From the IMG/VR virus record IMGVR_UViG_2974580128_000001: 64,000 nucleotides of DNA. One strand, written 5' to 3'. The notes beneath the pieces were generated by a model. That model saw only the letters and a list, made by a program, of their open reading frames with translations. It did not search any database and was not told the origin of the DNA. The translations under genes and the position numbers were made by a program. The DNA comes from a virus. Lineage: Duplodnaviria > Heunggongvirae > Uroviricota > Caudoviricetes > Herelleviridae. Every line of letters begins with the position of its first letter. The stretch's first letter is position 1. Below, piece by piece: positions 3,441 through 63,271 of the stretch.

Positions 3441-3524
3441 AATTAGTAGACAGTGATGAAAAATTGTTACAGGGCTACCTGTGGTATACTTAAACTAGTA
3501 CAAATGCTTGGGAGGTAAGAATAC

Positions 3525-15263: not shown

Positions 15264-15292
15264 TGCTATAATAAGTATAGAATGCTATATTA
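15264..15292 (+). promoter_or_regulatory. Tandem promoters TGCTATAATA and TGCTATATTA (chaperone operon)
   Basis: Motifs at 15264-73 and 15283-92. Confidence 0.65.
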
Positions 15293-39257: not shown

Positions 39258-39316
39258 TGCTATAATATAAATAGGGCACGATGCTGTGCCCTATTTTTTA
39301 ATTGAATGCTATATTA
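39258..39316 (+). promoter_or_regulatory. Promoter TGCTATAATA, terminator, promoter TGCTATATTA
   Basis: Motifs 39258-67 and 39307-16 flank AAATAGGGCAC-GATGCT-GTGCCCTATTT-TTT (39269-39299). Confidence 0.7.
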
Positions 39317-39350: not shown

Positions 39351-39896
39351 GTGGCTATTGCAACTAATAATTCCCGAGTGTATGCTTCATTACAACTTAA
39401 AAATAAAAAAGATAGCATGTACTTAGTTATCGGTAAAACCTCACCTTGGACAAATGAAGATGCCCCACCTGCTACAGACCCTAATACTTCAACATTACAA
39501 GAAGTTGTTGGTTACAAAAAAGTAAGTAAAGCATCTCTATGTCGTGAATACGTTGCAGATGACGAGAACAAGTACCCAGTGATTAGCTACGGTACTCGTA
39601 AATTTACTTTAATACCAGATGAGGATGCTTATAAAGAAAAAGCATGGATGGTATATATCGAATCTGAAATCGTAGGTGACGAATTACCTTTAGGTACATT
39701 TAGACAAGTAGGACTTCACACTGACCTAGTACCAAAAACAGGTGTAGATAAAGATGCGTTACTACCTACAGAAGTAACAAATGCAGGTATTTTACAATTC
39801 TTTGAAAACAGACAACAACAAAACAGAACTGCCGATGTAACAATCCGAGAAAAATTTATCGTTACAATGGAAAACGGCAAAACATTAAAAGCGTAA
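39351..39896 (+). CDS. Baseplate structural protein
   Basis: MAIATNNSRVY..IGKTSPW..E family signature. Confidence 0.85.
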   Translation: MAIATNNSRVYASLQLKNKKDSMYLVIGKTSPWTNEDAPPATDPNTSTLQEVVGYKKVSKASLCREYVADDENKYPVISYGTRKFTLIPDEDAYKEKAWMVYIESEIVGDELPLGTFRQVGLHTDLVPKTGVDKDALLPTEVTNAGILQFFENRQQQNRTADVTIREKFIVTMENGKTLKA

Positions 39897-39912: not shown

Positions 39913-42900
39913 TTGGCAAAAGAAATTACAAATGATGATTTAAAGAAAGCGCCCTACCTTGACCGCTTTGACCCTAACAAGAATAGAACACGAGTGCTAT
40001 TCAAACCGGATAAACCTCTTCAACAAGCAGAACTTAATGAACTACAAGCAATGCAAGATTATGCGTTATCCAATGTAGCAGAGTCCGTGTTCAGTGATGG
40101 GGACATCCAAACAGGTATGGAGTATATTCTTCAAGGAACTACGCTTACTGTTAAAAAAGGTAAAGTATTCCTTGGTGGTAAAATGCGTAACTTTAACGAG
40201 CAAAGTATTGAGATTACCGGTACAGGTACTGAGTATATTGGTGTTAAACTTGTTCAAAAGGTAATTACCGCAGAAGATGACCCAACCTTGTTAGACCAAA
40301 CAAGTGGCGTTCCTAGCCATTTCTCAGAAGGTGCAGACCGTCTAGAGGAAACAGTTGTACTAGGAGTAAACGATGATGAAGCTTCAAACATTTATCGTTT
40401 TGAGAACGGTCAATTATATATTAACCCAGATACACCAGAAATGGACAAAATCAATAAAGTATTAGCAGAACGTACTTATGATGAATCCGGTTCTTATCGT
40501 GTACGTGGATTTGATATGTATACAGAAGTACACCCAACAGACCCTAATAACAAAATCCAATTAGTTATTGACTCTGGACGTGCATATGTACTAGGTTTTA
40601 AAGTAGACAAACCTACAACTACTCGTATTGATATTGATAAATCTCGTGATTTAGAAACAATCAATAACGAAGGTTTCTACTACAGTAACGAAACTCGTTT
40701 AAACAAACTAGGTAACGCACCTGTATCTAGCGTAGACCGTGTAACAGCCCAAGTGGAAGTTGCAAAAGAACAAGTGTCTCGTGGAGTTGTTGGTGGAGGT
40801 ACTGATTACCTTAAAAATACTTCGGTAACAAAAGTTGTTCGTGTATGGACGGAAGGTTCCGGAGCGCACGAATATAGACAGGGAGAAGATTTCCAATTAG
40901 TTAATGGTCAAGCTATCTCATGGGCACCTACAGGGCAAGAACCACCTGCCGGAGGTACCTACTTTGTACAATACGTTTACAACAAAACAATGATTGAAAA
41001 CACTGATTATAAAGTAACTGTTAAAGGTGAAGGAGATAACCGTGAATGGTATATTGACTTTAACGAAATGACAGGTTCTAAACCAGTAGACGAATCATTA
41101 GTTAACGTAGATTACAAATACTTCTTAGCTCGTAAAGACTTAATTGTGTTAGACCATAACGGAAACTTTACTGTTCATAAAGGACAGCCTAACGCAATGC
41201 GTTTAGTAGATTCTCCTAACCATATTGACCCATTGACACTGAATATTGGTACAGTGCTTGTTTACCCAGATTCAAGCACGGCAGAAGCTAAGCAATGGAC
41301 AATCACTCGGTTAACGATGGAAGAGCTACAAAAATTATCTGTACGTGTAGACAATATGGAATACAACCAAGCGGTATTCTATCTTGACCAACCTGCGATG
41401 GCAGGAGAAAACCCAATCTATTTACGTGGGGTATTCTCAGATGCGTTTATCTCTCTTGATAAATACGATACAAGTCATCCAGATGCTACAATTGCCTTTG
41501 ACTTTGATACAGCAGAAATCACACTGCCTTATGCAGAGATTAATAAAACTGTACCATCCATTATCGAAGGTTCTAGTGAAGCACATGTATGGGGACGGTT
41601 AGTAACTGCACCATTTACCGAAGAAGTCGGAATTAGACAACCATTTGCTACAGAAGCAATGAATGTTAACCCATACAATACGTTCAATAAGCAAGGTGTT
41701 CTAACACTAAATCCTAGTGCAGATAACTGGATTGAAGAAGAACGTATCACTATCACCAAAGAAGAAACATCTACAATGACTATTCGTCAATGGTGGAGAC
41801 ACGGTGGAGCTTCTTGGACAAATGATGAAATGAACCTTGTATCTAACGTAGACCTAGACAACGGTATGAATTGGAGCGACCTAAAAGACGACTACCGTAA
41901 GTCTGGATTGTCTGGTACTACACTGTCTAGTGGTGGACAACAAACAAAAGAGTCTATGATTGAGTTCATGAGACAAATTGACGTTGAAATCTACGCTGAG
42001 AACTTAGAGCCAAATGCAAACAACTTAGTTGTGTCATTTGATGGACTACGTGTCCCTGTAACACCATCTTCTGGTTACCGTAAAGGTTCACAAGAGGGTA
42101 CTGGTATGGCAAATGCTGATGGTACGTTCAAAGGTGTATTCAAGATTCCTGCGGGTGTACGCTGTGGTACTCGTGAAGTATCTATTCGAAATGATACGAA
42201 CTTAGCAAGTACAACGTTCACTGCACAAGGAACAATGAAAACTACTGAGGACATCATCATCCGTACTCACGTAACAATTAACCTAGTTGACCCGTTGGCA
42301 CAATCATTCAGCTTCAATACCAACCGTATTGCTACAAGCTTCGATGTGTTCTTCGCTTCTAAGGATAGCAGTACAAACATTATCTGTCAAGTACGTGGTA
42401 TCTCAGAAGGTGGTCAACCAAACAAAACGGTTTATGCAGAACGTGTATTAAAACCTTCTGAAATCAATGTATCTGACGATGCTAGTGTAGCAACTAAGAT
42501 TACATTTGATGACCCATTGATGTGTAAAGCAGGTCAAGAATACTGTTTAGTGTTCATTACTGACTCTGATAAATACACAATGTGGATTGCTACAATGGGA
42601 CAAAACAGAATTGATGACCCAACGCAAAGTGTGAACTCTAACCCTTACTTAGAAGGTGTGCTTTACAGTTCATCTAATGCGAGTGCATGGTCTATTCACC
42701 AAATGTCTGACTTGAAATTTACTGTTTACACAGCTAAATTTAACAAAGAAGCTGTCTTGGAGTTCGATGTAATGAGAAACATCAACGTAGACCGTGTGGT
42801 TCTTATGTCCACATATTTAACTCCTGCGAATACAGGATGTAAATGGGACATGAAGATTGTTCTTAACAATGAACCTTCCGGAACAACCGTCAACGACAAA

Positions 42901-43371
42901 CCTTGGGTTCCAATTGCGAACTATGTAGACTTAGATGTTAACCAGATTGCTCGTGAGGTTAAACTTCGTGCAACGTTTAAAGCAAACCAATATATTTCTC
43001 CAATGCTTGCATTAGACGATATTATGTTTGCCGGTTTCTTAACTGCCTTGAAGGGTAGCTACGTATCTCGTACAATTGATTTATCCGAGGCTCCATACAA
43101 CACTGTTAAGATGTCTTACGAACAGTTTACTCCTGCCGGAACCACTGTTGTTGCAAAATACAGTACTGACGAAGGTAAAACATGGAAGACATTCACTACT
43201 CAGCCTACAACAACACAACGTACGCAAGATTTCGTTCGTGTAGACTACGTTGAGAAGATTAATACGGGTGGAACATTTAAATCCATTAAGTTCCGTCTTG
43301 ACATGACTACCCAGAACTCATTCCTCCGCCCGAGGGTGAGACGCTTAATGACGAATATGACCGACAAATAG
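39913..43371 (+). CDS. Adsorption-associated tail protein (TmpG-like, 1152 aa)
   Basis: PYLDRFDP..VLFKPDKPLQQAELNE; RTYDESGSY; DPLAQSF; length as in Twort-like homologues. Confidence 0.9.
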   Translation: MAKEITNDDLKKAPYLDRFDPNKNRTRVLFKPDKPLQQAELNELQAMQDYALSNVAESVFSDGDIQTGMEYILQGTTLTVKKGKVFLGGKMRNFNEQSIEITGTGTEYIGVKLVQKVITAEDDPTLLDQTSGVPSHFSEGADRLEETVVLGVNDDEASNIYRFENGQLYINPDTPEMDKINKVLAERTYDESGSYRVRGFDMYTEVHPTDPNNKIQLVIDSGRAYVLGFKVDKPTTTRIDIDKSRDLETINNEGFYYSNETRLNKLGNAPVSSVDRVTAQVEVAKEQVSRGVVGGGTDYLKNTSVTKVVRVWTEGSGAHEYRQGEDFQLVNGQAISWAPTGQEPPAGGTYFVQYVYNKTMIENTDYKVTVKGEGDNREWYIDFNEMTGSKPVDESLVNVDYKYFLARKDLIVLDHNGNFTVHKGQPNAMRLVDSPNHIDPLTLNIGTVLVYPDSSTAEAKQWTITRLTMEELQKLSVRVDNMEYNQAVFYLDQPAMAGENPIYLRGVFSDAFISLDKYDTSHPDATIAFDFDTAEITLPYAEINKTVPSIIEGSSEAHVWGRLVTAPFTEEVGIRQPFATEAMNVNPYNTFNKQGVLTLNPSADNWIEEERITITKEETSTMTIRQWWRHGGASWTNDEMNLVSNVDLDNGMNWSDLKDDYRKSGLSGTTLSSGGQQTKESMIEFMRQIDVEIYAENLEPNANNLVVSFDGLRVPVTPSSGYRKGSQEGTGMANADGTFKGVFKIPAGVRCGTREVSIRNDTNLASTTFTAQGTMKTTEDIIIRTHVTINLVDPLAQSFSFNTNRIATSFDVFFASKDSSTNIICQVRGISEGGQPNKTVYAERVLKPSEINVSDDASVATKITFDDPLMCKAGQEYCLVFITDSDKYTMWIATMGQNRIDDPTQSVNSNPYLEGVLYSSSNASAWSIHQMSDLKFTVYTAKFNKEAVLEFDVMRNINVDRVVLMSTYLTPANTGCKWDMKIVLNNEPSGTTVNDKPWVPIANYVDLDVNQIAREVKLRATFKANQYISPMLALDDIMFAGFLTALKGSYVSRTIDLSEAPYNTVKMSYEQFTPAGTTVVAKYSTDEGKTWKTFTTQPTTTQRTQDFVRVDYVEKINTGGTFKSIKFRLDMTTQNSFLRPRVRRLMTNMTDK

Positions 43372-43375
43372 AAGA

Positions 43376-43392
43376 TGTAACTGTAATGTAAC
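43376..43392 (+). promoter_or_regulatory. WalR/VicR-type direct-repeat box
   Basis: TGTAAC-TGTAA-TGTAAC, ending 22 nt before TATACT (43415-20). Confidence 0.55.
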
Positions 43393-43400
43393 ATTTCTAT

Positions 43401-43445
43401 GCCTCTTACTGTGGTATACTTATTGTATACGAAATAGTAGGAGGT
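43401..43445 (+). promoter_or_regulatory. RBS-sequestering hairpin containing an extended -10 (TGGTATACT)
   Basis: GCCTCTTACTG pairs with TAGTAGGAGGT; inner GTATAC-TTATT-GTATAC. Confidence 0.75.
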
Positions 43446-43451
43446 TTTTTA

Positions 43452-44414
43452 ATGGTTAAAGCATTACAATTAGCAGGTACTACATTTGGTAAATGGTACG
43501 TAAAAGAACGAGATACTTCTAAAAAAGGTAGAGCATACTGGATTTGTGAATGCTCTTGTGGAAGAACAGTTCAATCTATTCCGAGCGGTACTCTTACTAC
43601 AGGCTCATCTGTGATGTGTAAACAATGTGCAAATGAGAAATCTTTAGTGGGTAAGACTTTTGGTAGGTTGACCGTCATTAAGGATTCAGGTGAACGAGCA
43701 ACTAATGGTAGTATCCTTTGGGAGTGTAAATGTTCCTGTGGGAAGACAAGCCTTGTCAGGGGTTCAGAGTTGACAGGGGGTCGCACAAAGAGTTGTGGTT
43801 GTTACTCCACGGATGTACTCAAAAAAGTAGCCACTAAGCATGGATTGTCTAAAGTGAACGGAAAACCCACAAAATTATTCCGGGCATGGGCTTCGATGAA
43901 ACAACGGTGTTACAACAAGAACCATGCGAGTTATAAAGATTACGGTGGAAGAGGTATAACCATATGTTCTGAATGGCGTGAAGACTTTGAAGCTTTTCAT
44001 AATTGGGCTATGACTAACGGATTTTCCGATGACTTGTCTATTGATAGAATTGACAATGACAAAGGCTATTCACCAGATAACTGTCGATGGGTAGATGCTA
44101 AAACCCAGATTCGAAATAGACGAAATACAGTTACTTATGAGTGGCAAGGAAAAGAGTATACTCGAGCTGAGTTAAGTAGGTTGACAGGTATAAATGAGCA
44201 AACCATTGCTTCAAGATTGAACAAAGGTTTTTCCCTTGAAGAAGCCCTTTCTTCAAAAATAGGCACTTCTGTATTACTTATGACCTATAAAGGGGAGACT
44301 AAACCTGTCAAACAATGGTGTAAAGAACTAGGATTGAACTATGCAACTGTACGTAACAGACATTATAAGGGTTGGACTGATGAAGAAGCTTTGACTGGTA
44401 TACGTAATAAATAG
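43452..44414 (+). CDS. HNH-family homing endonuclease
   Basis: Two G..FG.L.V...W.C.CSCG repeats; SMKQRCYN..YGGRGI; DRIDNDKGYSPDNCRW; C-terminal HTH-like repeats. Confidence 0.9.
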   Translation: MVKALQLAGTTFGKWYVKERDTSKKGRAYWICECSCGRTVQSIPSGTLTTGSSVMCKQCANEKSLVGKTFGRLTVIKDSGERATNGSILWECKCSCGKTSLVRGSELTGGRTKSCGCYSTDVLKKVATKHGLSKVNGKPTKLFRAWASMKQRCYNKNHASYKDYGGRGITICSEWREDFEAFHNWAMTNGFSDDLSIDRIDNDKGYSPDNCRWVDAKTQIRNRRNTVTYEWQGKEYTRAELSRLTGINEQTIASRLNKGFSLEEALSSKIGTSVLLMTYKGETKPVKQWCKELGLNYATVRNRHYKGWTDEEALTGIRNK

Positions 44415-44426
44415 TCAACCAAGTTG

Positions 44427-44470
44427 AATAGCCTCTATATGCTATACTAGGCATATAGGGGTTATTTTTT
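44427..44470 (+). terminator. 16-bp stem terminator whose loop is a -10 element
   Basis: AATAGCCTCTATATGC-TATACTAG-GCATATAGGGGTTATT-TTTT. Confidence 0.8.
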
Positions 44471-44491
44471 ATGTAAAGGAGACTTATTGAT

Positions 44492-44698
44492 ATGCCAGAA
44501 TCATTTAGACAAAAATCATCAGGAGCTTTAATTTTTAGACCTACAGTTTCTGAGAAAATCCATTCTAACCAGATGAAAGCTCTTGCTAAAGATAAAGAGA
44601 AATTGAACAGAGACATACAAGAGGTTAATAATTTAAAACAAGAATTGACTAAGGAATTAGAAGAAATTAGAGAATTAAAAAACAAGTTAAAAGGATAA
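44492..44698 (+). CDS. Small coiled-coil protein normally adjacent to TmpG
   Basis: RBS AAAGGAG; R..SGALIF.PT..E pattern. Confidence 0.8.
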   Translation: MPESFRQKSSGALIFRPTVSEKIHSNQMKALAKDKEKLNRDIQEVNNLKQELTKELEEIRELKNKLKG

Positions 44699-44828
44699 AA
44701 TGTCCTATTTTAATTTTTTGACCTCCTTATATATTTAATATTATATATTTAACTATTTATCTAAGTTATAAGTATTTATATATTATATATTTATATATAA
44801 GGGAACCAAAAATGGAAAATAGGACATT
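44699..44828. other. Candidate replication origin: AT-rich core inside a long inverted repeat
   Basis: Arms 44699-44734 and 44793-44828; 4 G/C in 74 nt (44727-44800); TTATATATTT three times. Confidence 0.5.
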
Positions 44829-44855
44829 GACATACACTTACAGTACTGGTACAAT
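44827..44855 (+). promoter_or_regulatory. Sigma-A promoter TTGACA-N17-TACAAT (helicase operon)
   Basis: TTGACA 44827-32, TACAAT 44850-55. Confidence 0.85.
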
Positions 44856-44891
44856 AGTATTGTAAGGTGTGAGACATTATTAGGAGGACTT

Positions 44892-46667
44892 ATGAGACTA
44901 GTAATAGATGTAATGCACACTCAGATTAGATTTGATGAAAACGAAGGTAGTCTTCGTAGCACTATACATAGAGTAATGCACGAAGAACTTGGAGTAAAAG
45001 CAGATGGCTATCAATTTAGTCCTGCATATAAATCAGGTTACTGGGATGGTATTATTGATTTTTATAATAAAGACAACGATACATTTCCTACAGGTCTAGT
45101 ACCTAAAGTAGAGGAAATCCTAGGAAGACTACAAACTGCTATGGGTAGTAGAGGTTACATGTTTCAATTTGAGATTATTGATGACAGACCTGACAAATTC
45201 ATGGAAGTTGAAGAAATGGACTCAGAAATTAAATTGAATGGTGACAATGGAGAAATAATTACTCTACGTGACTATCAATATGATTCTGTAAAAAGTATTA
45301 TTGAGAAGCAAACAGGTATTATCAATGTTGCTACTAATGGTGGTAAAACAGAGATTGCTTCTGGTTTAATACAGCAAATCCTACCTGCTTTAGAATCGGG
45401 AGAAAGGATTGCATTCTTTACAAACAGCTCCTCTATCTTCACTCAATCTATCGACCGTATTGAAAAACGATTAGGCATTAAAGTAGGTGCCTTTGGAGCA
45501 GGTAAAAAGGATATTCAACAAGTTACATTTGTGATGATTCCAACAATTACCTCTGCTATTTCAGCAGACCCAGAAGCTAAACTTAAACTTACACCGAAAG
45601 AGCGTATGTACAAAAAGTTAGCTAAAGAGATTGCTCCTAAGTTCCTTACAGGATTTAATCAAAAAGGACTACTTGAAGGTTACATCCGTAACTTCCAAGT
45701 GAAAACAAAAGCTGATTTACAGTTGAAACATGAATTGGAAGAGGCTTACTACAGTTGTGGAACCAACAAACAGGTAGTGATGAAAATGCGTAGTTATCAA
45801 GCTGAGTATGAAAAGGTAGTCGAGAAAAAGAACGGGAAGGTCTTGAAGAAATACAACGAAGCAAAAGAGTTTTTAGAATCTGTTGCTGTTATGATTGTAG
45901 ATGAGGCACACCATACTAGTTCTGATACTTGGTACCAAGCACTAACTGCTTGTTCTAATGCTCAGTATCGTATGGCTTTAACAGGTTCTATTGACATGAA
46001 AAACCATGTGTTATGGCAAAGAATGCAAGCCATTTTTGGTTCCATTACTACCAAGGTATCAAATGACACCTTAATCAGTTTAGGTCACTCTGCAAAACCT
46101 AAAATTACCATTTTCCCAATTATTGCCCCTACAGACATCGAAAACTCCAATTACATGGATGCTTACAAGATGGGGATAGTGGACAATGTATACAGAAACT
46201 CTTTGATTGCTAAACTTACAAAGAAAATGTATGAGAGTGGCAGTGGTGTACTGGTAATTATTAATCGTATTGAACACGGGGAAACGATTAGTGAGTTATT
46301 AGATGCAGAAGGTGTACCACATTACTTCATTCACGGGGAGCTTGATAATGACTTACGTGATGAAAAGTTACAAGAAATGCGTGACGGACATTTGAAGGTG
46401 ATGATTTCCTCAACAATTATTGATGAGGGGGTTGACATCTCCGGTATTGATACCTTAATATTAGGTGCAGGTGGTAAGTCCTTACGTCAAACCTTGCAAC
46501 GGGTAGGTCGTGGCTTACGTAAGAAAAAGACAGGTGAAAACAAGGTATCTGTTTTTGATTTTTACGACTTGACAAATAAACACTTGAAGAAACATTCGGA
46601 AGAGAGAAGAAAAATCTATGAGAAAGAACAATTTGAGATTGTTGACATCCCTCTTCCAACGAAATAA
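44892..46667 (+). CDS. SF2 DNA helicase (UvsW-like)
   Basis: LRDYQ, ATNGGKT, VDEAHH, LTGS, EGVDI, QRVGRGLR. Confidence 0.95.
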   Translation: MRLVIDVMHTQIRFDENEGSLRSTIHRVMHEELGVKADGYQFSPAYKSGYWDGIIDFYNKDNDTFPTGLVPKVEEILGRLQTAMGSRGYMFQFEIIDDRPDKFMEVEEMDSEIKLNGDNGEIITLRDYQYDSVKSIIEKQTGIINVATNGGKTEIASGLIQQILPALESGERIAFFTNSSSIFTQSIDRIEKRLGIKVGAFGAGKKDIQQVTFVMIPTITSAISADPEAKLKLTPKERMYKKLAKEIAPKFLTGFNQKGLLEGYIRNFQVKTKADLQLKHELEEAYYSCGTNKQVVMKMRSYQAEYEKVVEKKNGKVLKKYNEAKEFLESVAVMIVDEAHHTSSDTWYQALTACSNAQYRMALTGSIDMKNHVLWQRMQAIFGSITTKVSNDTLISLGHSAKPKITIFPIIAPTDIENSNYMDAYKMGIVDNVYRNSLIAKLTKKMYESGSGVLVIINRIEHGETISELLDAEGVPHYFIHGELDNDLRDEKLQEMRDGHLKVMISSTIIDEGVDISGIDTLILGAGGKSLRQTLQRVGRGLRKKKTGENKVSVFDFYDLTNKHLKKHSEERRKIYEKEQFEIVDIPLPTK

Positions 46668-58959: not shown

Positions 58960-59018
58960 TTACTACTAGGTAGTACAGAGTTTTACTCCTTTTGCTTGTA
59001 AGGCGTTCCTGTCAGTTA

Positions 59019-59028
59019 TGTTATAATA
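59019..59028 (+). promoter_or_regulatory. Extended -10 TGTTATAATA
   Basis: Intergenic, ~40 nt before ATG 59065. Confidence 0.6.
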
Positions 59029-59064
59029 GAGATAGGAAAACTAAACAGCAAAAGGAGTTTAATT

Positions 59065-59859
59065 ATGAGTAGCACACCTCGAGTAAAGCGGTTAAATATC
59101 TATAATACCGACCGACACTTTAATATAAACTTAATGAAACGTGAAGACATTGCAAGTAAAATTAAAGTGAATCGGTTAAATGAAAAAGAAATTGAGAAAG
59201 AGATGGATGAATTAAGCGAAGTATCGGTTGTCACACCAGTTTGGACAATGAACATGAAGAATGAAAAGTCCTATCTCTTATATCAAGAAAAATATACAAA
59301 TGATACATTGATACAGAAATTATTTAAACATGCAGGTTCTGTTTCTTACTATACAGATACAATTGTACCTTACTATGTTATTGAACAGATTGCTAAAAAT
59401 CTAACAAGTGAAGTAATTTATCCAACAAAACCTAAATATGAAAATAGAGAGATTGAAAATATTCAGCTAGCATTTACGGCTTGTCCTGTAACCATTGATT
59501 GTCCAGTAGTTATTCCAGATGTTAGTCCTTATGACGTTTTATTTGCTTTACACCCCTTAAAAACAAGTGTAGACAAAGTACAAATTTCATTTCCGTGGCT
59601 GTCAGAATCAGAAATATCTGACAGACATAGACGTTATTATCATAAGGTTGGAGACCATTATGAGGTTAAAGCAAAATATAAATATCAATTCTTTAAATAT
59701 GTCCAGACCTCACTATCCATCTGGGCTATGAACATTTGGATTGTTTGTGATAGTGATGAGGATTTTGCCAATGTCGATTACTATGTACAAAAAGAAAAAA
59801 ATAAAAGAAACGTCAATAGAGAACGTGCTCTCCAACGAAAGGAGAAGTCTGATGAGTAA
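59065..59859 (+). CDS. Conserved hypothetical protein preceding the HU-like gene
   Basis: RBS AAAGGAG; synteny. Confidence 0.8.
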   Translation: MSSTPRVKRLNIYNTDRHFNINLMKREDIASKIKVNRLNEKEIEKEMDELSEVSVVTPVWTMNMKNEKSYLLYQEKYTNDTLIQKLFKHAGSVSYYTDTIVPYYVIEQIAKNLTSEVIYPTKPKYENREIENIQLAFTACPVTIDCPVVIPDVSPYDVLFALHPLKTSVDKVQISFPWLSESEISDRHRRYYHKVGDHYEVKAKYKYQFFKYVQTSLSIWAMNIWIVCDSDEDFANVDYYVQKEKNKRNVNRERALQRKEKSDE

Positions 59860-60244: not shown

Positions 60245-63200
60245 TTGAAAATACTGTTCTTACAAGATTATATCAGAGAGACCCATGTACATAACAGTCA
60301 GAATGGACAATATGTAGACTATAAACGTACTGACATGGGTAAAAAGCTTACAAGTTTACTTAACGACATAGGTCTAACAGGTCGTGATTACATGATTGAC
60401 TACGACTATGACCTAATTCCTGAACCACAGAAGGTAAATACTAAAACAGGTAAAGTTATTAAATACAAGGAGCCTGTATTAAAACTCCGGAAAGAACCTG
60501 AAAAACGTCTATTAAAACGATTAATGAAAACAAAACCAGACATCATTATTCCTATGGGAGGAATGGGATGTAAGAACTTATTGAATAGTACTTCTATTAC
60601 GAAAGCACGTGGTGTTCCTGTACAAAAAACAATCACTGATGAAGAAACAGGGGAGTTTTTTGATACATGGATTCTACCAATGTTTAGCATGGAATACCTG
60701 TCAATGAATCCTAATATTGAGAACTTGGTAAAAGCAGACATTTCTACTTTATCTCGTTTTATTGCAGAGGGTGCACAAGCATTCGAGCCAAAGAAAGTCG
60801 AATATGAGCTTGTTATGACAATTGAACGAGTGAAACAAATCTTTGAGTTCTTGTCTCGGTTTAAACCTCTTACTGCATGGGACTTGGAAACAAACAGTCT
60901 ACGTGGAGATGTATTGGGTGCGAAACCACTAGTTATGTCTCTTAGTTGGGAAGAGGGACAAGGTGTTACGATTCCACTAGAACATCATGAATCCCCTTGG
61001 AATGAAGAAGAACTAGCTATTGTATACAATCATTTACAAGCTTTTGTAGCTGATGCACAGCAACCAAAGGTAGGACACAATATCCAGTTTGATATTCGTT
61101 TCTTAATGAACACAAAAGGGTTTGCTTATTTTGAGAATAACCGTGATACATTGATTGGGTACTACTTAATCGTAGCACAGAAAATTGAATCTTCTAAACG
61201 TTTGTCAGACCTTGCTTATGAACTAACTGATATGGGCGGTTATGACAACCCGTTAGAAGACTATAAGAAGAAATACAAGGAAGACTACATTGCTCGTAAG
61301 AAAGCTGAAATTGATGAGTTAAAAGCTTCTGAGAAAGCACGTGTAGATAAGGAATACAAACTAGCACAGGCTAAATACAAAGAAGAAGTGGCAAAAGCTA
61401 AGAAACTAGGTAAGTCTACTAAATCAATTTTGAAACCTGTAAAAGAAAAAGTAGCTGTTCCTTCTAAGACAGAAGTTAAAACTGTGAATGAAATTGATGG
61501 TGGGGACTTTAACTATGATTGGATTCCATTAGAAATTATGCACCCATACGCAAGTGGAGATACAGATTGTTGCTTACGTATTTATAACGTACTATACCAA
61601 CGAATTGCTCCTCATGAAAAGATTCTAGCTCTTTGGACAGACTTCTATCCTAAACTTACACGGACACTTGCTCATCTAGAAGCAGAAGGTATCTTCGTTG
61701 ATAAAGAATATGCGAAAGTTCTTGAAAAGGTATATGCAGAAGAGGAAGAACGTCTTATTGAAGAACTACGTAAGTTCCCTGCTGTTAAAGAGTTAGAAGC
61801 AGAGCACATGGCACTCTATAAAGCAGGTCTAGAAGAATGGAAGAAACCCAAGTCAGAACGAGACGAAGAGGTTGCTAAACTTCGTGATAAATATAAGATT
61901 TCTGATAAGGAAAACAAAGTTAAGTTCAATCCCGGCTCTGCTGTCCATAAAGGAAAAGTTCTTTATAAGATTCTTGGTCTAACATTACCTTATGACAAAG
62001 AGTCCATTAAAGAAAAACCTTTTGATAATGGTGTTCCTGAAAATGAACTAACTTGGGAAGACTACAAGACAGATAAACATGCTTTGGGCTATATCGCAGA
62101 GCACAATGAAGATGCAAAAGAATTAGCAGAAATGCTACTGGAATACTCTAAAGTAAACACCTTGAAGAACAACTTTGCTCAGAAACTTCCGTTACTAGCT
62201 TCAAACAAGGATGGAAAAGTACATGGTTCGTTCAAGATTACTGGTACAGAAACAAGCCGTTTATCTTCTAAAGAACCTAATATGCAACAAGTACCATCTA
62301 AAGTTGGAGACCCTAAACGTTTTGACTATACGTACCCAATTAAGCGTATGTTTAAAACAAGCTTTGAAAACGGAGCTTTATTACAGCTCGACTACTCAGC
62401 CCTAGAAATGCGTATTCTAGCTTTAGTAGCCGGAGACGAAGCGATGACTCAAGCTTTCTTAGATGGAGAGGACTTACACAAATCAACCGCTTCTATTGTT
62501 TGGAAAGTACCTGTATCAGAAGTATCTAAGGATATGCGTAAGAATGCTAAAAGTGTTAACTTTGGTATTGCTTATGGGGAAACACCTTTCTCTATTGCTC
62601 CTAAATTAGGTGTAACACCAGAAGAAGCTGAACGTATCTTTGAAGACTACTTTGCAAACAAACCACGTATTAAATCCTTTATTGATGAAACACATGAGTT
62701 TGTTAAAGAAAACGGATATGTAGATACCTTACAAGGACACCGTAGACTGATTCGTGATGCGTTCTCTAAAGACCGTAACACATTCAATGGTGCTTTACGT
62801 AAGTCAGTAAATACGATTATTCAAGGAACTGGTGCATACTTAACAAACATGTCTCTGGTGTATATTGACGATTATCTAAGAACTAAAGGTATGCAGTCTC
62901 GTATTGCTATTACAGTACATGACTCCATTGTAATTGATTGTCCTCGTGAAGAAGTAGACGAAGTAGCAAAAGTAGCTTGTTTTATCATGGAAAACCTACC
63001 GATTGATTTCTTAACAATTAATTGGAAAGGGGAACAAATGCGATTTCCTATTGTAGCCGATGTAGAAATCGGGGAAAACTACAATGACATGGTAGACTAT
63101 GATGCAGACGAAGTGAACAAATTTGCTTCTTATAAAGGATATGTTAAGTATTACAAAGACCAAGCTAAATTTGAAGACTATAAGAACGCAGGTATGATTA

Positions 63201-63271
63201 GTGAGGAACAAATGGAAGTCGGTATTAATGCAGTTAAGGCTTCTATAGAACAGTACAAACTAATTGTGTAA
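60245..63271 (+). CDS. Family A DNA polymerase with N-terminal UDG-like domain and 3'-5' exonuclease; uninterrupted
   Basis: DLET, HNIQFD, YASGD exo motifs; DYSALEMR, KSVNFGIAYG, VHDS polymerase motifs. Confidence 0.96.
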   Translation: MKILFLQDYIRETHVHNSQNGQYVDYKRTDMGKKLTSLLNDIGLTGRDYMIDYDYDLIPEPQKVNTKTGKVIKYKEPVLKLRKEPEKRLLKRLMKTKPDIIIPMGGMGCKNLLNSTSITKARGVPVQKTITDEETGEFFDTWILPMFSMEYLSMNPNIENLVKADISTLSRFIAEGAQAFEPKKVEYELVMTIERVKQIFEFLSRFKPLTAWDLETNSLRGDVLGAKPLVMSLSWEEGQGVTIPLEHHESPWNEEELAIVYNHLQAFVADAQQPKVGHNIQFDIRFLMNTKGFAYFENNRDTLIGYYLIVAQKIESSKRLSDLAYELTDMGGYDNPLEDYKKKYKEDYIARKKAEIDELKASEKARVDKEYKLAQAKYKEEVAKAKKLGKSTKSILKPVKEKVAVPSKTEVKTVNEIDGGDFNYDWIPLEIMHPYASGDTDCCLRIYNVLYQRIAPHEKILALWTDFYPKLTRTLAHLEAEGIFVDKEYAKVLEKVYAEEEERLIEELRKFPAVKELEAEHMALYKAGLEEWKKPKSERDEEVAKLRDKYKISDKENKVKFNPGSAVHKGKVLYKILGLTLPYDKESIKEKPFDNGVPENELTWEDYKTDKHALGYIAEHNEDAKELAEMLLEYSKVNTLKNNFAQKLPLLASNKDGKVHGSFKITGTETSRLSSKEPNMQQVPSKVGDPKRFDYTYPIKRMFKTSFENGALLQLDYSALEMRILALVAGDEAMTQAFLDGEDLHKSTASIVWKVPVSEVSKDMRKNAKSVNFGIAYGETPFSIAPKLGVTPEEAERIFEDYFANKPRIKSFIDETHEFVKENGYVDTLQGHRRLIRDAFSKDRNTFNGALRKSVNTIIQGTGAYLTNMSLVYIDDYLRTKGMQSRIAITVHDSIVIDCPREEVDEVAKVACFIMENLPIDFLTINWKGEQMRFPIVADVEIGENYNDMVDYDADEVNKFASYKGYVKYYKDQAKFEDYKNAGMISEEQMEVGINAVKASIEQYKLIV

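Follow-up and report, generated by a model that had tools for sequence, protein, structure and literature searches.

A conserved hairpin masks the ribosome-binding site of a putative homing endonuclease in an Enterococcus Herelleviridae phage and may contain a promoter of its own

Results

A putative homing endonuclease gene follows a late tail gene

The window, by which we mean the whole stretch of 64,000 nucleotides analyzed here, is viral DNA whose region around position 43401 is 97-99% identical to Enterococcus Herelleviridae phages (Brockvirinae, Schiekvirus) such as 163, iF6 and EFDG1. Genes around the nuclease ORF lie on the + strand throughout (Table 1). Upstream of the nuclease gene is a long tail gene, called TmpG in an earlier note on this DNA, whose product is annotated in relatives as an adsorption-associated tail protein. 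It is the final member of a late unit that begins at a late box (39307-39316) and runs through the genes starting at 39351 and 39913. On the other side of the nuclease gene, the small phrog_1074 gene is followed by a gene for a UvsW-like helicase, which has a canonical sigma-A promoter. An Rfam scan of 43200-44900 found no relevant family and returned only a sub-threshold chance match to rRNA.

Table 1. Features of the nuclease locus and of a second gene with a similar leader
Feature	Position	Strand	Basis or remark
Tail gene	39913..43371	+	Pfam DUF4815, E 1.7e-219
Mobile cassette, 1043 bp (leader and nuclease ORF)	43372..44414	+	Absent exactly there in relatives
Tandem repeats TGTAAC-TGTAA-TGTAAC in the cassette leader	43376..43392	+	Sequence
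Outer-stem 5' arm (anti-SD)	43401..43412	+	ViennaRNA fold
Promoter-like extended -10 (TG, one base, TATACT, TA)	43412..43422	+	Match to the CKA15 early motif
Inner stem-loop, 6-bp perfect palindrome, 5-nt loop	43414..43430	+	ViennaRNA fold
Outer-stem 3' arm, including SD GGAGG (43440-43444)	43434..43445	+	Sequence and ViennaRNA fold
Six-T run, SD-to-ATG spacer and possible terminator U-tract	43445..43450	+	Sequence
Free-standing putative homing endonuclease, 320 aa	43452..44414	+	phrog_374 'HNH endonuclease', E 4.6e-102
Native tail-gene terminator, GC-rich, now 3' of the cassette	44426..44467	+	Terminator scan
68-aa gene	44492..44698	+	phrog_1074; adjoins the tail gene in cassette-free phages
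Core gene 59065	59065..59859		phrog_1054

The assignment of the protein as a nuclease is putative and rests on PHROG and GenBank labels; sequence searches of Pfam, NCBIfam and the PDB gave no HNH match. Its invariant core consists of the segments MKQRCYNK, IDRID and NCRW, in this order, and has no histidine at the position usual for the general base. In an AF2 model (pLDDT 83.7), two N-terminal cysteine-rich beta domains are followed by a central domain and two C-terminal helix-turn-helix (HTH)-like repeats. For the central domain, PacI (Z 5.2, rmsd 5.4 A over 99 residues) and I-HmuI (Foldseek E 0.21) are weak structural matches; fold searches with the full-length model gave no clear match. 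The window contains no paralogue of the gene elsewhere.

The hairpin belongs to a mobile cassette

The nuclease ORF is present in about 29 records and is precisely missing from seven related phages (PEf771, phiSHEF16, vB_Edu_21C1, PEF1, Bill, TJE1 and EFGrNG), by which we identify 43372-44414 as a mobile cassette that contains the hairpin described below. Reading PEf771 base by base, we found that the stop codon of its tail gene leads straight into what, in the window, lies behind the nuclease stop codon. This places the junction exactly, to within a shared AAATAG that is present at both ends. Because the insertion spans 43372-44414, leader, hairpin, SD and ORF move as one unit. When phages with and without the cassette are compared, the final ~40-60 bp of the tail gene form a mosaic, a pattern typical of the flanks of homing sites. 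Mobility of the gene is well supported by the pattern of presence and absence.

In PEf771, a sequence identical to the terminator at 44426-44467 sits directly after the tail gene. From this comparison we identify it as the tail gene's native terminator, displaced downstream by the insertion. Its loop contains a late-type box (44440-44449) with one mismatch to the consensus. We considered whether the leader hairpin arose by duplication of this native terminator and rejected the idea: the two align locally with a score of 16, a value that 265 of 1000 shuffles reached or exceeded, and which is not significant.

A two-tier hairpin locks the Shine-Dalgarno sequence in long leaders

Between the two genes, a two-tier hairpin (12 + 6 bp) spans positions 43401-43445, with a minimum free energy of -22.5 kcal/mol and a z-score of -4.66 (ViennaRNA); none of 200 dinucleotide shuffles matched its stability. 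In the outer stem, 43401-43411 pairs with 43435-43445 through eight Watson-Crick and three G.U pairs, to which ViennaRNA adds a twelfth, U43412-A43434. In the inner stem, 43414-43419 pairs with 43425-43430 around the loop UUAUU. The pairing of an anti-SD arm with the SD and the GTATAC inner stem had been proposed in the earlier note, and the sequence agrees with that proposal base for base, as does the fold. The note had also placed a -10 element inside the stem, where we find a -10-like hexamer: within the 5' half of the hairpin, TG at 43412-43413 comes before TATACT at 43415-43420. The ATG at 43452 lies past the T run.

This arrangement buries the SD. Among 47 pairs of SD and start codon on the + strand of the window, the nuclease SD ties for the lowest predicted probability of being unpaired (0.001, against a median of 0.49), and the background of masked SDs in the window is 3 of 47. 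We folded long against short leaders, as the earlier note had suggested. Every long leader tested, with 5' ends from 43100 to 43401, gave the same value of 0.001, whereas 5' ends from 43410 to 43431 gave 0.28-0.65, which is the normal range for genes of the window. In silico, the SD is therefore locked on RNA that reads through from the tail gene, as had been claimed, and is freed from 43410 onward. These analyses confirm that the hairpin and its SD lock are real, non-random, conserved and cassette-borne, and that long and short leaders differ in silico.

The masking fold is kept in all leader variants

Seventeen cassette-bearing loci yielded nine distinct leader sequences, which fall into three variants: A (the window, EFDG1 and members of Kochikohdavirus), B (phage 113, Porthos and EfsSzw-1) and C (vB_OCPT_Bob). 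Upstream of the hairpin, variant A can barely be aligned with B and C, and the lengths differ. Common to all three are the anti-SD core CCTCYTAC, the SD arm, and the inner stem with a TATA[C/A]T hexamer. TGTAA-type units, arranged as tandem repeats in the leader of the window, are also found in variants B and C. Translational coupling to the tail gene was considered and rejected because its stop codon (43369-43371) is distant from the stem, lying 30 nt before it in variant A and further away in B.

Variants B and C fold like A, with z-scores of -5.5 and -5.2, respectively. We counted the pair changes by hand, as a MAFFT alignment of the leaders failed to register the inner stems. The nine distinct sequences display one compensatory change, at the apical pair of the inner stem, which is C-G in A and A-U in the other two variants. 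Three further changes are one-sided and compatible with pairing (C-G to U.G once and G.U to A-U twice), and none disrupts the hairpin. The pattern agrees with selection for structure, if thinly, given a single double change. In variant C, only UU and then a C follow the stem, and additional pairing extends over the AUG. That this variant lacks most of the U-run, yet has its AUG paired, suggests that translational masking, rather than termination, is the function kept in all variants.

Conservation of the inner stem could be explained equally well by a palindrome in the DNA. The inner palindrome at 43414-43430 overlaps the -10-like hexamer and is a candidate operator, to which a dimeric or tandem-HTH protein could bind, perhaps the nuclease, which would then repress its own gene by analogy with I-TevI. 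The 6-5-6 inverted repeat is symmetrical in all variants and made of Watson-Crick pairs only; by contrast, the outer stem has G.U pairs, which are workable in RNA alone. The two HTH-like repeats of the protein model are in line with such an operator, as is the precedent of I-TevI, for which autorepression has been described (PMC2988022). Against these points stands that covariation does not tell a DNA palindrome from an RNA stem. We regard the operator as improbable, though compatible with the other readings discussed here.

Masking does not appear to be a trait of the nuclease family at large. Of the distant homologues whose start could be assigned, only two (L026 and L033) mask the SD, and partial analogies to masking are seen in L014/L022 and L021; this rate is not clearly above the 3 of 47 in the window, and we rejected a family-wide trait. 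In all three Kayvirus homologues examined, the SD is free. In two of the three, the stretch immediately before the nuclease gene holds first a terminator, then a promoter-like box and then the SD; the third has no terminator-like hairpin just upstream. Kayvirus and distant phage homologues mostly display the serial layout of terminator, promoter and SD, with no masking.

The hairpin contains a box that matches the early-class -10 motif

Upon comparison with mapped promoters, we noticed that the box at 43412-43422 fits the TG-x-TATACTTA core of the Herelleviridae early extended -10 motif. It reads as the core TGxTATACTTA and matches 11 of 13 positions of the early -10 motif of Listeria phage CKA15, whose early promoters, mapped by ONT-cappable-seq, consist of ATGxTATACTTAA and a TTGAC-type -35 (PMC12282133). 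Late promoters lack a -35 both in CKA15, where they read TDTGCTATATTA (PMC12282133), and in Kayvirus, where they read TGTTATATTA and transcription starts 6 bp past the box (PMC7698491). In the window, TGCTATATTA has nine exact copies, which lie on the + strand from 257 to 39316 and nearly always follow a terminator closely, and we identify it from this distribution as the late box of the window's phage. The nuclease box matches TGCTATATTA at 7 of 10 positions and was not found when one mismatch or fewer was allowed, and we rejected it as a late promoter. In sequence, it matches the early sigma-A-type extended -10 class.

The 11-mer TGxTATACTTA has two copies in 128 kb (both strands), both on the + strand and intergenic, the other lying at 3482. 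The looser TG-N-TATA[A/C]T is found 13 times on the gene strand of the window versus twice on the opposite strand, mostly between genes. The bare hexamer TATA[A/C]T is common in this AT-rich genome, with 59 copies on the + strand of the window.

The spacing mapped in CKA15 predicts A43427 as the +1 nucleotide, which lies beyond the anti-SD arm. The earlier note had proposed an RNA that starts near 43427 and lacks this arm, and the promoter-like extended -10 speaks for such a start. Three observations speak against it. First, a TTGAC -35 is absent 16-18 bp upstream, where the hexamers are CATTTC, ACATTT and ATTTCT; a promoter scan gave no match at the nuclease box, and no leader variant has a -35. 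Second, the TG of variants B and C sits right next to the hexamer, out of register for an extended -10, leaving only TATAAT conserved. Third, hexamers of this kind are, as noted, common in the genome. The equivalent start in B and C falls on the 3' arm of the inner stem, in the same place as in A. Weighing these features of the sequence, we give a real transcription start within the hairpin slightly better than an even chance.

If the box were inactive, the lock could be opened by RNA processing, for example by RNase III or RNase Y/J cutting the stem of the read-through RNA. Processing-activated translation occurs in other phages. The missing -35 and the stem, which is 18 bp (12 + 6) long and nearly continuous, speak for processing. 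Against it, an internal loop breaks the helix, and a -10-like box matching a mapped promoter class sits at the right distance. We consider opening by processing the least probable of the alternatives weighed here, slightly behind the operator.

The hairpin has the anatomy of a terminator

The earlier note stated that no terminator follows the tail gene. We could not confirm this: a 12-bp stem followed by U6 is terminator anatomy, and the depositors of phage 113 (GenBank MZ147816.1) marked the corresponding hairpin as a terminator that overlaps the RBS. We found no separate terminator between the stop codon at 43371 and the hairpin. Four to six further U follow the stem in variants A and B, and two in C. 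With its interrupted stem, the hairpin went undetected by a simple pattern-based scan for terminators. The other terminators of the window have short, continuous, GC-rich stems and loops of 3-8 nt, whereas the nuclease hairpin is 45 nt long with an AT-only top. A d'Aubenton-Carafa-type score, which we do not rely on since the boundaries of the comparison stems were rough, was marginally positive for the hairpin. Judging from this anatomy, partial termination is likely in variants A and B, though not as the conserved core function.

The same anatomy bears on the supply of read-through RNA. Tail mRNA reading into the nuclease gene, which the earlier note took to be abundant, may instead be scarce, given that the hairpin resembles an intrinsic terminator. 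In a Kayvirus, late transcription passes through at least one terminator (PMC7698491), so an SD lock would still matter behind a leaky terminator.

The hairpin might then be an intrinsic terminator and nothing else, either carried by the cassette or acquired after insertion, with the SD placed in its 3' arm through compactness and with no internal promoter; traces of nuclease would come from rare read-through RNA when the stem breathes. The 12-bp basal stem with six T directly after it, the annotation in phage 113, the displacement of the native terminator by the insertion, the terminator that immediately precedes the nuclease gene in two of the three Kayvirus homologues, and the absent -35 are all as expected of such a terminator. 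It accounts less well for variant C, which keeps the stem with only UU before a C and extends the pairing to the AUG, or for a two-tier, AT-topped hairpin that is unlike the other terminators of the window and escaped the scan. Moreover, a gene that is intact in ~29 phages needs a route of expression. We therefore consider it rather unlikely that the hairpin is solely a terminator, though clearly less so than for processing or an operator.

A core gene of the same phage has a similar leader

The SD that ties with that of the nuclease as the least accessible of the 47 belongs to core gene 59065. Here, a 12-bp helix of anti-SD and SD closes a structure of ~75 nt (dG -38.8, z -5.06), inside which a box at 59019-59028 fits the published motif TGYTATAWTA (PMC12282133). 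In phiEF24C, a phage of a different genus, both arms differ in sequence yet pair (z -5.7), and the box is retained. By our own count, three compensatory pairs distinguish the helices of the window phage and phiEF24C. On comparison of these sequences, gene 59065 shows a T4-style layout with stronger covariation than the nuclease hairpin. With the same layout present at a core gene, the phage lineage appears to use the device elsewhere.

Discussion

Relation to known RBS hairpins

The earlier note had likened the hairpin to those of T4 and Aeh1 homing endonuclease genes, a precedent that is real. In I-TevI, I-TevII, I-TevIII and segB of T4 and in mobE of Aeh1, early and middle transcripts have their SD folded away, whereas it is exposed on RNA from a late promoter that lies within the structure (Gott 1988; Gibb and Edgell 2007, 2009, as reviewed in PMC2988022). 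The nuclease locus is alike in having a homing endonuclease gene within a polycistronic unit, a consensus SD ~7-8 nt before the AUG that lies in a very stable hairpin on transcripts from upstream promoters, and a promoter, here predicted, that is positioned to yield a transcript without the 5' arm. It differs in that the hairpin has a U-tract and may terminate transcription, and in belonging to Herelleviridae of a Gram-positive host. The timing is different as well. In T4 and Aeh1 the bypass promoter is late and the masked RNAs are early or middle, whereas at the nuclease locus a late unit lies upstream and the box matches the early sigma-A class. Of the T4 logic that the earlier note transferred to this locus, the SD lock carries over. 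The late unlocking does not, since the predicted box matches the early sigma-A type, not the late one, and lacks a -35.

The device is not confined to mobile genes. T4 uses the same RBS hairpin in the non-mobile late genes soc, e, 39, 25 and 26 (PMC2988022). There, too, long transcripts hide the SD and the transcript from an internal promoter exposes it, and the nearest parallel in the window is gene 59065; these T4 genes are core phage genes, whereas the nuclease hairpin belongs to a mobile cassette. McPheeters reportedly studied this device on T4 lysozyme in 1986.

Termination has precedents, too. Intrinsic terminators limit the transcripts of the T4 mobE and segF endonucleases (PMC2988022). 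As proposed here, a terminator restricts the amount of endonuclease-containing transcript; in mobE and segF it lies inside the 5' coding region, whereas our candidate lies in the leader and shares its 3' arm with the SD. In a related case, the intron homing endonuclease ksaI of a Kayvirus has its own early promoter within a late gene (PMC7698491). Like the nuclease described here, it is a Herelleviridae homing endonuclease in a late gene context with an early promoter of the sigma-70 type, which for the nuclease is a prediction; unlike it, ksaI resides in an intron and has no described SD-masking hairpin. The earlier note knew of no report of the hairpin-bypass scheme in enterococcal Herelleviridae, and in the literature searched we found no report of it in Herelleviridae. 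The mechanism is thus of a kind already known from T4, and its example in Herelleviridae is new as far as the literature searched goes.

A nested control module

These observations suggest how transcription and translation may be layered at this locus. A homing endonuclease cassette entered right behind the stop codon of the late tail gene, pushing that gene's terminator downstream, and would have brought with it a nested 5' control module within one 45-nt hairpin. On RNA of the tail operon, the 5' arm would pair with the nuclease SD and block the entry of ribosomes, as folding and conservation indicate. The stem and U6, judged by their anatomy, would probably terminate part of the tail transcripts and so replace the displaced terminator. 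The extended -10 in the 5' half of the hairpin, though it lacks a -35, would probably start a short mRNA at about A43427. Because the anti-SD arm is missing from it, this mRNA would be neither terminated nor masked, and we infer that it would be the only translatable form. With the box in the early class and the upstream operon late, the nuclease would be made in low amounts from its own weak promoter and would stay silent on abundant late tail RNA. If the box is active, the likely reading of the locus is therefore a T4-like logic with its timing reversed.

Taken as a whole, the nested module, in which an SD lock, a probable terminator and an internal early-class promoter are combined on a homing cassette, strikes us as evenly balanced between right and wrong. 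A more far-reaching version would have one hairpin serve all three functions and possibly an autorepressor's operator as well, in an idiom that is general in Brockvirinae and was adopted by the mobile element. That version we hold to be doubtful, if a little more probable than a hairpin that only terminates.

If true, the nested module would extend to the Herelleviridae of Gram-positive hosts the T4 paradigm, in which RNA structure holds selfish nucleases almost silent and a private promoter alone expresses them, and a mobile cassette could carry all the signals that leave transcription and translation of its host operon undisturbed. Its layout would be a compact natural part that holds terminator, promoter and translational lock together, and its predictions are cheap to test. 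Schiekvirus and Kochikohdavirus are candidates for therapy against Enterococcus, and expression of the nuclease bears on marker exclusion and on recombination within phage cocktails.

Late-type boxes and terminators

Of the nine exact copies of TGCTATATTA in the window, nearly all are intergenic and lie directly 3' of terminators in the structural module (see the table). The copies match the late promoters mapped in Listeria phage CKA15 (PMC12282133) and, apart from one change, the late promoters of Kayvirus (PMC7698491). They look like the late promoter set of the window phage. Two places, 39258-39316 and 15264-15292, each have a promoter-like TGCTATAAT box with a TGCTATATTA box behind it. 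The TGCTATAAT box at 39258 directly precedes a terminator (39269-39296), so that its predicted transcript would contain this terminator.

The native terminator of the tail gene carries a late-type box in its loop and is identical in sequence in PEf771, a relative that lacks the nuclease cassette. Because the start predicted from this box falls in the 3' arm of the terminator, transcripts arriving from upstream would stop there, and the new transcript, serving a 68-aa gene, would escape termination.

Coordinates of regulatory features in the window
Feature	Position	Strand	Remarks
Tandem units TGTAAC-TGTAA-TGTAAC	43376-43392		nuclease cassette leader
TGCTATATTA copies	257, 1678, 2405, 3431, 5629, 7507, 11849, 15283, 39307	+	exact match
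Native tail-gene terminator with late-type box in loop	44426-44467		box 44440-44449, one mismatch
Anti-SD:SD structure with box	58985-59064		upstream of gene 59065-59859; fold

The nuclease cassette and its relatives

In the cassette leader, the tandem units finish about 22 nt upstream of the -10 hexamer, and TGTAA-type units are present in leader variants B and C too. Comparison of the tail-gene end (window 43310-43371) with three other loci (L001, L002 and L038) shows that the final 40-60 bp of the gene are mosaic, both among the cassette variants (A, B and C) and in phages that lack the cassette. This pattern agrees with co-conversion tracts around a homing site, or with target-site immunity there.

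The 'HNH' label of the nuclease itself (P0001, 43452-44414) found no supporting match in Pfam, NCBIfam or PDB sequence searches, and its invariant core, IDRID...NCRW, is without a histidine at the usual general-base position. In the predicted model, both the N-terminal Cys-rich beta domains and the C-terminal HTH-like units are duplicated.

A homologue with 40% identity is encoded on an unrelated IMG/VR viral contig (L021). There, at about 1915-1958, a GGTATAC/GTATACC hairpin ends at the ATG of the homologue and carries the same TGGTATACT box in its 5' arm; the likeness may reflect convergence or a shared design. Distant paralogues of the window nuclease occur in vB_OCPT_Bob (L053, about 1430-1460) and phiM1EF22 (L052), in surroundings that look like group I intron sequence. 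The SD (Shine-Dalgarno sequence) of the vB_OCPT_Bob paralogue lies within a small 5-bp hairpin (ACTCC ... GGAGT).

In EFDG1, an endonuclease-bearing insertion interrupts the DNA polymerase gene (L037, 37243-41000); in the window this gene (60245-63271) is one uninterrupted ORF of 1008 aa. This is a further case in the phage group of a mobile element that is present in some members and absent from others.

A predicted SD lock on a core gene

Gene 59065-59859 (phrog_1054, function unknown) is a core gene. A long-range helix of 12 bp pairs its SD with an anti-SD (dG -38.8, z -5.06) and encloses an extended -10 box of the TGYTATAWTA class (59019-59028). In the phiEF24C counterpart the arms have diverged in sequence with pairing kept, through about three compensatory pairs. 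A non-mobile gene of this phage thus has a predicted T4-style SD lock.
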